A stretch of 37,170 nt of DNA from a virus (lineage: Duplodnaviria; Heunggongvirae; Uroviricota; Caudoviricetes). The position numbers and the translations under genes are program-made. The stretch lies in IMG/VR virus record IMGVR_UViG_2585427743_000015; one strand, 5' to 3'. Within the stretch, counting starts at the first letter, position 1, and every line of letters begins with the position of its first letter. The notes below the pieces were generated by a model. That model was not told where the DNA came from and made no database searches. It saw nothing but the letters and a program-made list of their open reading frames with translations. Positions 34,828 to 35,346 of this stretch are shown piece by piece.

Positions 34828-35016
34828 CAGGCAGAATTGCCGGAGTAACAAAAAAGCGATAGATTACGTGCGGGTGCCTTTCGGCTGATGGTCGGAGGGA
34901 ATACCCGAAGGCCGGATGTGGAAAGGCCCCGGAAAACATTTCTGTTTAACCGAGGCCCTAACCCGTCAACCTAGCAAGTGATAGGTTAGCGCCTCTCCAA
35001 CAAAGGAGCAAGCGCT

Positions 35017-35157
35017 ATGTCGCAAAAATCGCTTACGGCCATCACGTTCTGCGTGACGGTAATCCTCATCATCTGGATGCTGCACGGTTCGCTGTGTGAA
35101 ATACGGATGAGCTTCTGGGGAGCGGAGTTTGCGGCGTTCTTACAGTGTAAGCAGTAA
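35017..35157 (+). CDS. Hok/Gef-family type I toxin-like small membrane protein (46 aa)
   Basis: Translates to 'MSQKSLTAITFCVTVILIIWMLHGSLCEIRMSFWGAEFAAFLQCKQ'; one TM helix then 'SLCEIR' and 'E.AAF', matching Hok as remembered. Below the ORF-track size cutoff. Confidence 0.6.
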   Translation: MSQKSLTAITFCVTVILIIWMLHGSLCEIRMSFWGAEFAAFLQCKQ

Positions 35158-35245
35158 GGAAACCGCGACGGGGAGGCAACTCCCCGTCAATCGGTTGCTA
35201 GGGTAAGGCCGATAAGGCACCCTATCTCATTGGCATGAATAACAA

Positions 35246-35278
35246 CCCCGCAGCGTAAAAACTGCGGGGTTTCTTTTT
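35246..35278. terminator. Rho-independent terminator downstream of the hok-like gene
   Basis: Hairpin CCCCGCAG (35246-35253) / CTGCGGGG (35262-35269) followed by 'TTTCTTTTT'. Confidence 0.55.
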
Positions 35279-35346
35279 GGAACTCTCACTAGCTAGTGAG
35301 CTGTTAACTGCACAAAATGCTCGCACAACAAATCAGTTAAAAGAGA

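Follow-up and report, generated by a model that had tools for sequence, protein, structure and literature searches.

The window analyzed here comprises the whole 37,170 nucleotides (nt) of the IMG/VR virus record IMGVR_UViG_2585427743_000015 (Caudoviricetes) and is a prophage of Escherichia coli that is of P2 type and falls into the P88 group (Xuanwuvirus). The ogr end of this P88-like prophage carries a cassette which is very probably cargo in form of a hok/sok-type type I toxin-antitoxin system. Its small gene 3' of ogr is, judged by its sequence, a genuine Hok-family membrane toxin, being preceded by a diverged relative of the hok 5' untranslated regions (UTRs) and faced on the minus strand by a likely antisense RNA antidote. 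The finding as such is already known: the peptide is annotated in RefSeq and is covered by a PHROG family as well as by a Hok cluster already catalogued and tested, and prophage hok genes are documented. The enrichment of hok genes in prophages is known likewise, and the importance of the locus lies mainly in its correct annotation.

The Hok peptide and its prophage setting

The toxin gene was assigned to the following position:

35017-35157, + strand: hok open reading frame (ORF) of 46 amino acids (aa), MSQKSLTAITFCVTVILIIWMLHGSLCEIRMSFWGAEFAAFLQCKQ; ATG at 35017, TAA at 35155-35157

An initial annotation of this DNA had described here a 46-codon ORF with one transmembrane (TM) helix followed by the motifs SLCEIR and E.AAF. 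All of these were recovered, as the peptide contains a single hydrophobic stretch (residues ~6-23), SLCEIR at residues 25-30, and EFAAF at residues 37-41. The membership in the Hok family, proposed from these motifs, was corroborated by the Pfam model PF01848 (HOK_GEF), which was matched with 30.1 bits (gathering score 22; E 3.7e-7) by residues 7-44, corresponding to positions 5-42 of the 42 in the profile, and by a match to PHROG 251 (E 2.5e-23). Full-length alignment to the K-12 peptides resulted in 43% identity to HokA, 26% to HokC, and 22% to HokB. Escalera-Maurer et al. (bioRxiv 10.1101/2025.08.07.668861) determined the positions M1, C16, T18, L30, C31, E32, and E41 (logo numbering) to be conserved in >80% of 1264 Hok peptides. 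In the alignment, all seven are present in the window peptide, represented by M1, C12, T14, L26, C27, E28, and E37.

Both cysteines known to form the essential disulfide in HokB (10.1101/2025.08.07.668861) have their counterpart here, Cys27 being encoded by TGT at 35095-35097 and Cys44 by TGT at 35146-35148. Because both are hard-coded, as is the case for K-12 HokA (10.1101/2025.08.07.668861), TadA editing is not needed. HokA (b4455) is also the closest of the three compared K-12 peptides, and the HokA model is the best NCBIfam hit of the window ORF. This equivalog model (NF007290) was nevertheless matched with only 35.8 bits, thus not reaching its cut-off of 89, and the general Hok subfamily model NF007279 yielded 23.6 compared with a cut-off of 73. 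Being far below the equivalog cut-off, the window ORF is not a HokA orthologue and belongs to a separate Hok cluster.

This peptide type is found in cluster 72, a high-abundance cluster of Escalera-Maurer et al. (10.1101/2025.08.07.668861). Two of its members, 72_1621 and 72_1589, are among the tested representatives given in Table S2 of this preprint. The former deviates from the window ORF by one residue only (V15A), the latter is the version found in Stx2 phages. In total, 42 out of 45 representatives were toxic on induction, and none of the three non-toxic ones, which are named, belongs to cluster 72 (10.1101/2025.08.07.668861). By this tally, both 72_1621 and 72_1589 are toxic, so toxicity of a one-residue variant of the window peptide has been reported elsewhere. 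As far as they were covered, the supplementary files of the preprint do not list the window peptide itself (10.1101/2025.08.07.668861).

The ORF had initially been considered unannotated, which did not hold: RefSeq lists the identical peptide as WP_000078920.1 ('Hok/Gef family protein'), and gp52 of phage P88 is its counterpart. Both P88 gp52 and PHROG 251 carry the label 'MokW-like host killing'. This label is misleading in two respects, as the ORF is a Hok and as the name was transferred by similarity, the characterized HokW being a different peptide of 51 aa.

With the ogr stop codon at 34827 (Pfam Ogr_Delta, 52.4 bits), the cassette is indeed the next locus downstream of ogr, as described initially. 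The insertion of the prophage adjoins leuZ-cysT-glyW and pgsA. One could consider the locus as part of the host chromosome beside leuZ instead of the prophage, in line with its position at the extreme prophage end and with a decayed second hok leader lying beyond it (35885-35963). This view is already refuted and deserves practically no credence. The cassette is located inside the complete phage genomes of P88, Chuche, P884B11, 500465-2, PhiR44_2, and Shae_phiSM, the P88 copy being found at 34928-35068 of 35814 in a complete circular genome. In E. coli genomes free of the insertion, the match to the window begins only at 36101. Furthermore, the gap between the ogr end and the hok ATG is constant, with 190-192 nt in 79 of the 80 IMG/VR loci bearing the peptide. 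This IMG/VR scan returned only 98-100% identical peptides, making it useful for context with scant diversity for covariation.

With regard to its distribution, the 473-bp stretch of the locus is 100% identical on DNA level in enterotoxigenic E. coli (ETEC) H10407 and 13 further listed genomes, where it is annotated as Hok/Gef, and homologous DNA was detected in 1753 out of 5426 complete E. coli genomes. Diverged copies with 75-87% DNA identity are present in Stx2 phages, on IncI1 and other plasmids, in Salmonella, and in E. albertii. The Stx2-phage copies are homologous over 34851-35222, covering the cassette from the -10 box through the fbi element described below.

The predicted hok mRNA, its alternative pairings, and a putative antisense RNA

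The hok/sok locus (parB) of plasmid R1 and R1-type IncF plasmids, referred to as R1 in the following, and the window share the same order of promoter (putative in the window), tac, ucb, GAGG box, antisense gene (predicted in the window), and hok ORF. After hok, both continue in the same order with the 3' stem-loop, fbi, and, past fbi, a terminator-like hairpin. The elements assigned on and around the hok mRNA are:

34837-34865, + strand: putative hok promoter; -35 TTGCCG at 34837-34842, 17-nt spacer, -10 TAGATT at 34860-34865
34872-35224, + strand: predicted full-length hok mRNA of ~353 nt; 5' end placed by homology, 3' end uncertain and possibly reaching the terminator at ~35279
34872-34886, + strand: tac element GGGUGCCUUUCGGCU at the mRNA 5' terminus; can pair with fbi or ucb
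34920-34931, + strand: ucb-like box GGAAAGGCCCCG; pairs with the GAGG region (full-length fold) or with tac (truncated fold)
34952-34962, + strand: GAGGC box GAGGCCCUAAC, counterpart of the R1 mok Shine-Dalgarno region
34985-34995, + strand: dcb-like box GUUAGCGCCUC; overlaps the 5' arm (34987-34998, with CUCC) of the hairpin concealing the hok ribosome-binding site, both together spanning 34985-34998
35003-35008, + strand: hok Shine-Dalgarno sequence AAGGAG, 8 nt 5' of the ATG, as read from the sequence
35167-35188, + strand: 3' stem-loop GACGGGGAG-GCAA-CUCCCCGUC with 9-10 pairs
35207-35222, + strand: fbi element GGCCGAUAAGGCACCC, complementary to tac
35244-35279, no strand assigned: intrinsic terminator hairpin AACCCCGCAG...CUGCGGGGUU; stem 35244-35271 and T run to ~35279

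By alignment, homology to K-12 hokB, K-12 hokC, and the R1-type locus covers the whole cassette between the -10 box and the 3' end. The putative hok promoter begins 10 nt past the ogr stop codon, and its -10 hexamer TAGATT aligns with TATAAT of K-12 hokC and TAGGAT of hokB. The leader of ~150 nt described as GC-rich was found to comprise 145 nt (34872-35016), with 54% G+C over the stretch matched by Rfam RF01794 (34872-35027; E 9.3e-9), in which model position 1 falls on 34872. The scores for this model decrease from K-12 hokC (118 bits) and hokB (110) over R1 (87) to P88 (47.9), the window (47.3), and the Stx copy (42.1). In the K-12 and R1 loci, the hits of RF01794 ('sok antitoxin (CssrC)') extend on the hok strand from the beginning of the mRNA as far as the hok ATG. 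It models the sense-strand hok 5' UTR and not the Sok strand, and the name 'sok' is misleading. The window leader is homologous to these 5' UTRs and represents a diverged relative of them.

The 355-nt RNA 34872-35226 folds with -163 kcal/mol, corresponding to z = -8.0 compared with 100 dinucleotide shuffles. Together with the Pfam, PHROG, and Rfam matches, this fold rules out a chance resemblance. For evaluation of the individual helices, 48 distinct sequences were drawn from P2-like and Stx2 phages, IncI1 and other plasmids, Salmonella, and E. albertii, within which 96.9% of cells are paired. Closure of tac with fbi appears in the minimum-energy full-length folds of all ten sequences examined, the window plus nine diverged relatives, with duplex energies between -21.6 and -30.5 kcal/mol and at most two out of 300 shuffles being as good. 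Over the 48 sequences, 96.4% of tac/fbi cells are paired, and changes are found mostly on the fbi side, keeping G-C or G-U pairs. On the scale of the whole family, tac and fbi changed together, because R1 has GGCGCUU/AAGCGCC at the same places where GGGUGCC/GGCACCC is found in the window.

The pairings alternative to this closure, tac/ucb and GAGGC/dcb, are contained in the RNAalifold consensus of ten relatives, and tac/ucb is formed in seven out of 10 truncated folds. GAGGC/dcb is likewise present in the truncated fold. These stems correspond to the tac/ucb and SD/dcb (Shine-Dalgarno/dcb) stems of the truncated active R1 mRNA (PMC9841398). In the full-length fold, dcb pairs with GGAG and the start-codon region, excluding its pairing with 34952-34962. 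In this fold, the hok Shine-Dalgarno sequence is part of a hairpin (34987-35017) overlapping dcb with its 5' arm, and is fully paired with a probability of 0.00 for being unpaired. As predicted from the sequences, the alternative pairings are present and conserved. We calculated the energy needed for opening the ribosome-binding site (RBS) of hok in three forms of the mRNA:

Full-length: window 13.5 kcal/mol, mean of ten relatives 12.5
3'-truncated: window 6.5 kcal/mol, mean of ten relatives 7.8
Truncated with the Sok site blocked: window 13.8 kcal/mol, mean of ten relatives 11.0

In the calculation of these means over ten, the E. albertii row was wrongly parsed and is to be ignored. In terms of the folding model, the opening energies fit a direct relay from the 5' end to the hok RBS without mok.

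The initially described 9-bp stem with a GCAA loop at 35167-35188 is present, with 99.8% of cells paired and compensatory changes at four pairs, including GC-to-AU and AU-to-GC/CG swaps at the two loop-closing pairs. The truncated R1 mRNA is shielded against 3' exonucleases by its last stem-loop (PMC9841398). By analogy, 35167-35188 is likely to represent the protective end of the trimmed active mRNA. The terminator, also noted before, extends over the stem 35244-35271 and the T run to ~35279. It is located between hok and a convergent ORF (35347-35628), and the scan found the hairpin on both strands. The terminator is kept in P88 up to 35278 and is not found in the Stx2-phage copies.

An antisense RNA, expected in the initial annotation, was evaluated based on two features of the minus strand:

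34912-34975, - strand: predicted Sok-like RNA GCUAGGUUGACGGGUUAGGGCCUCGGUUAAACAGAAAUGUUUUCCGGGGCCUUUCC, ~60 nt, by K-12 sok homology
34983-35011, - strand: putative sok promoter; -35 TTGCTC at 35011-35006, 17-nt spacer, -10 TAACCT at 34988-34983; start near G34975

The annotated K-12 sokB and sokC both map by alignment to 34916-34975 on the minus strand of the window, so the expectation is backed by a homologous sok site. The predicted RNA begins with the 5' tail GCUAGGUU, continues with an extended stem-loop (GGCCUCGG/CCGGGGCC) and a U-rich tail (UUUCC), and shares its first eight bases with sokB. Its predicted fold (-26.3 kcal/mol) has the same shape as those of sokB, sokC, and R1 Sok. The hexamers at 34983-35011 lie within the stretch 34950-35030, for which a search for a minus-strand promoter had been suggested before. 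In position and layout they correspond to TTGCGC-17-TATCCT in the R1-type locus and TTGCCG-17-TAAGAT in hokB. The antisense promoter of R1 and the putative one of the window both overlap the hok RBS. Taken by sequence resemblance, an antisense RNA antidote is likely.

The stretch 34960-34975, facing the 5' tail of the predicted Sok, is the most variable patch of the cassette among near-identical relatives, showing substitutions as well as 1-nt indels. These differences could make each Sok specific for the hok mRNA of its own locus. CUAG, a YUNR-type motif, is found in the loop.

The absent mok frame and possible roles of the cassette

The window and R1 share the predicted Sok fold and the conserved Hok residues, and differ in several respects. 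The window Hok has 46 aa compared with 52 aa in R1, with low identity outside the conserved motifs as judged by eye. Its tac/fbi sequences are unlike those of R1 but changed jointly, its leader reaches 47 bits with RF01794 compared with 87, and its carrier is a phage instead of a plasmid. One further difference is conspicuous and concerns mok. Translation of Mok is required for Hok synthesis in R1, where mutations stopping Mok also stop Hok (PMC9841398). In R1, hokB, and hokC, the sequence CGAGGC is followed by the mok ATG 9-10 nt further on. The GAGGC box of the window aligns with this sequence, and no ATG, GTG, or TTG was found 5-12 nt after GAGG in any of the 48 sequences of the lineage (48/48), i.e., the mok frame is absent. 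Close relatives carry 1-nt indels in the patch following the GAGG box. The initially proposed hok mRNA architecture was thus borne out with respect to the leader homology and the pairing of 5' and 3' ends, and could not be upheld as a full R1 type. In K-12 hokA, other than in the window, an in-frame mokA remnant cut by IS150 is annotated.

Two candidate substitutes for mok were rejected. An upstream ORF (uORF, 34916-34981) varies in length and frame among the relatives: starting with the ATG at 34916, it comprises 21 codons in the window, compared with 19 for P88 and 15 for the Stx copy. On IncI1 plasmids, ATG-TAG is all that is left of it, and in S. diarizonae it is removed by a deletion. A frame at ~34958-35098, which is in a register equivalent to mokB and overlaps the hok start, has no start codon and is shifted by 1-nt indels in the P88 and Stx copies.

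As a tentative model, which we regard as quite conceivable while falling short of the better-supported conclusions on the cassette itself, the cluster 72 lineage, with members in P2-like and Stx2 phages, on IncI1 and other plasmids, and in Salmonella, may have dispensed with mok, with the RNA relay of tac, ucb, GAGGC box, dcb, and Shine-Dalgarno hairpin switching hok and with Sok holding the GAGGC box instead of blocking mok translation. As the mechanism of the cassette itself we propose a scheme of the R1 type, in which RNA refolding and Sok would gate hok translation directly. In this scheme, a modest promoter just past ogr would give rise to a hok mRNA of ~350 nt, which is closed by tac (34872-34886) and fbi (35207-35222) and stays silent, its Shine-Dalgarno sequence and AUG being sequestered in the hairpin 34987-35017. 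Slow 3' trimming to the stem-loop 35167-35188 would remove fbi, whereupon tac may bind ucb (34920-34931) and the GAGGC box (34952-34962) would be freed for binding dcb (34985-34995), thereby opening the hairpin over the hok RBS. A short and unstable Sok-like antisense RNA, running from ~34975 to ~34912 on the minus strand, would pair with the stretch from ucb to GAGGC and keep the RBS closed, presumably followed by RNase III cleavage. Once the supply of Sok ends, e.g., by loss or excision of the prophage or by a block of host transcription through an infecting or induced phage, Hok would be made, enter the inner membrane, and collapse the membrane potential. The R1 mechanism is established elsewhere; for the window we infer that both RNAs are transcribed and that the mRNA is processed at its 3' end, and equally a direct relay without mok as well as the role discussed below. 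If true, the mok-less relay represents a simpler variant of the R1 paradigm, and the absent mok start provides a natural test of whether mok is dispensable given a strong hok RBS. Only the consistent absence of mok combined with a switchable RBS of hok itself is mildly new, being not addressed in the literature examined. The preprint 10.1101/2025.08.07.668861 analyzed coding sequences only and explicitly left Mok, Sok, and the mRNA structure unannotated.

A number of results weigh against a functioning cassette of this kind, in addition to the absence of mok. The putative hok promoter fits the consensus at 8/12 positions only, the sok hexamers match it at 3/6 each, and the consensus promoter scan reported neither a hok nor a sok promoter on either strand; the promoter calls were made by positional homology only. 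The suggested antisense RNA is to this extent accompanied by a promoter that is weak by consensus. With 47.3 bits, the window leader stays below the RF01794 gathering score of 59. As a consequence, the RNA half of the system, i.e., leader and Sok gene, escapes annotation pipelines, which record a lone toxin without antitoxin. The tac/ucb and GAGGC/dcb helices are near-invariant with pair counts not above those of shuffles; because their columns hardly vary, covariation is silent on them either way. The truncated folds leave the Shine-Dalgarno sequence mostly paired (probability unpaired 0.0-0.3), and the opening energy of IncI1 RHB47 is nearly unchanged between the forms. Finally, the chromosomal hokA, hokB, and hokC of K-12 type failed at post-segregational killing (10.1101/2025.08.07.668861, introduction).

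Several of these points would suit an inert passenger, in which the toxin ORF is intact and its translation dead through loss of mok, similar to the K-12 chromosomal hok loci, which do not kill upon arrest of transcription: the missing mok start codon in 48 sequences together with the abolition of Hok by Mok-blocking mutations in R1 (PMC9841398), the weak promoters, the leader under the Rfam threshold, and the chromosomal genes' lack of post-segregational killing. We nevertheless consider this as clearly improbable, since hok has its own AAGGAG 8 nt ahead of the ATG. Furthermore, the ORF, the seven conserved residues, and every RNA element are kept in the 48 sequences across phages, plasmids, and species, and the variation in fbi preserves its pairing, which argues for selection on a working switch rather than decay.

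Regarding the role of a working cassette, our best guess is prophage addiction, with help in lysis and abortive infection as live alternatives. The sole experimental evidence of a role for such a prophage system comes from hokW-sokW of the Stx2 prophage Sp5 (Takada et al. 2021, PMC8621323), which is, like the window cassette, a prophage-borne type I system of the hok/sok type. There, mitomycin C removes the sokW RNA, HokW is made in a RecA-dependent manner, and deletion of the locus halves phage release (PMC8621323). A corresponding help in lysis upon induction, instead of addiction, would also be suited by the location of the cassette directly 3' of the late-gene activator ogr: as no terminator is found between ogr and hok, late read-through into hok is possible. 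On the other hand, HokW of Sp5 is a different, HokC/D-like peptide of 51 aa (MKQQKAM...) with a hokC-like leader, not allowing automatic transfer, the Sp5 result was obtained with an Stx2 prophage and not with a P2-like phage, and the window cassette also occurs on conjugative plasmids, which do not lyse their hosts. We thus regard help in lysis as a minority possibility. Slightly less weight is given to abortive infection, in which an incoming lytic phage would shut off host transcription, thereby depleting Sok and releasing Hok. It is in line with R1 hok/sok lowering the plating of T4, an effect that is reported as cited in PMC8621323 and 10.1101/2025.08.07.668861 and that by these accounts required a high-copy plasmid. 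The position at the prophage end beside a variable segment (35300-36100, replaced in P88) suits accessory cargo of this type as well, but no PADLOC model was matched. An identity of the window locus with Sp5 hokW-sokW was ruled out, HokW being the different 51-aa peptide. In the paper on HokST of Salmonella pCol1B9 and in the accompanying supplement, we found no sequence by which a link to the window could be judged.

Surroundings of the cassette

The decayed hok leader at 35885-35963 is ~75% identical to 34877-34960 (84 nt aligned), and its local alignment score amounts to 35 compared with 9.3 +/- 1.4 for shuffles. No hok ORF is found downstream of it, and it looks like the remains of a second hok/sok locus close to the junction between prophage and chromosome. 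The surrounding segment 35300-36100, reaching from the hok terminator to leuZ, is present in 588 out of 5426 E. coli genomes and absent from P88 and every other phage record, where a different sequence is found in its place. By all appearances, this is either a slot for variable cargo at the end of the prophage or what an earlier insertion left behind. Within this segment, the convergent ORF (35347-35628, - strand) encodes a Cys-rich hypothetical protein of 93 aa (RefSeq WP_071595684.1) with a signal-peptide-like N-terminus, assigned to PHROG 27544 (unknown function; E 1e-58), whereas neither Pfam nor PADLOC gave a hit. At 36085-36113, a stretch of 23 A and subsequently 6 C lies exactly where the sequence common to all E. 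coli resumes (~36101), 58 nt before the 3' end of the tRNA-Leu gene (leuZ, 36171-36254, - strand), and may be the attachment-site boundary.

In the early prophage region, isrK (6262-6336, 65.9 bits) and a C4 antisense RNA (6372-6459, 87.1 bits) were detected on the plus strand, both exceeding the Rfam gathering scores. Late control gene D is intact in the window (33283-34524) and interrupted by IS30 in the same prophage of H10407 (NC_017633.1, 2165811-2171283); because of this difference, the window originates from a strain other than H10407 despite the 100% identity of the hok region. A search of genome contigs gave only five loci. Two of these, with the 100% identical 46-aa peptide in assemblies labeled as Planococcaceae bacterium UBA3378, a metagenome-assembled genome (MAG), and Vagococcus sp. 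WN89Y, most likely represent contamination by E. coli DNA and were left out.

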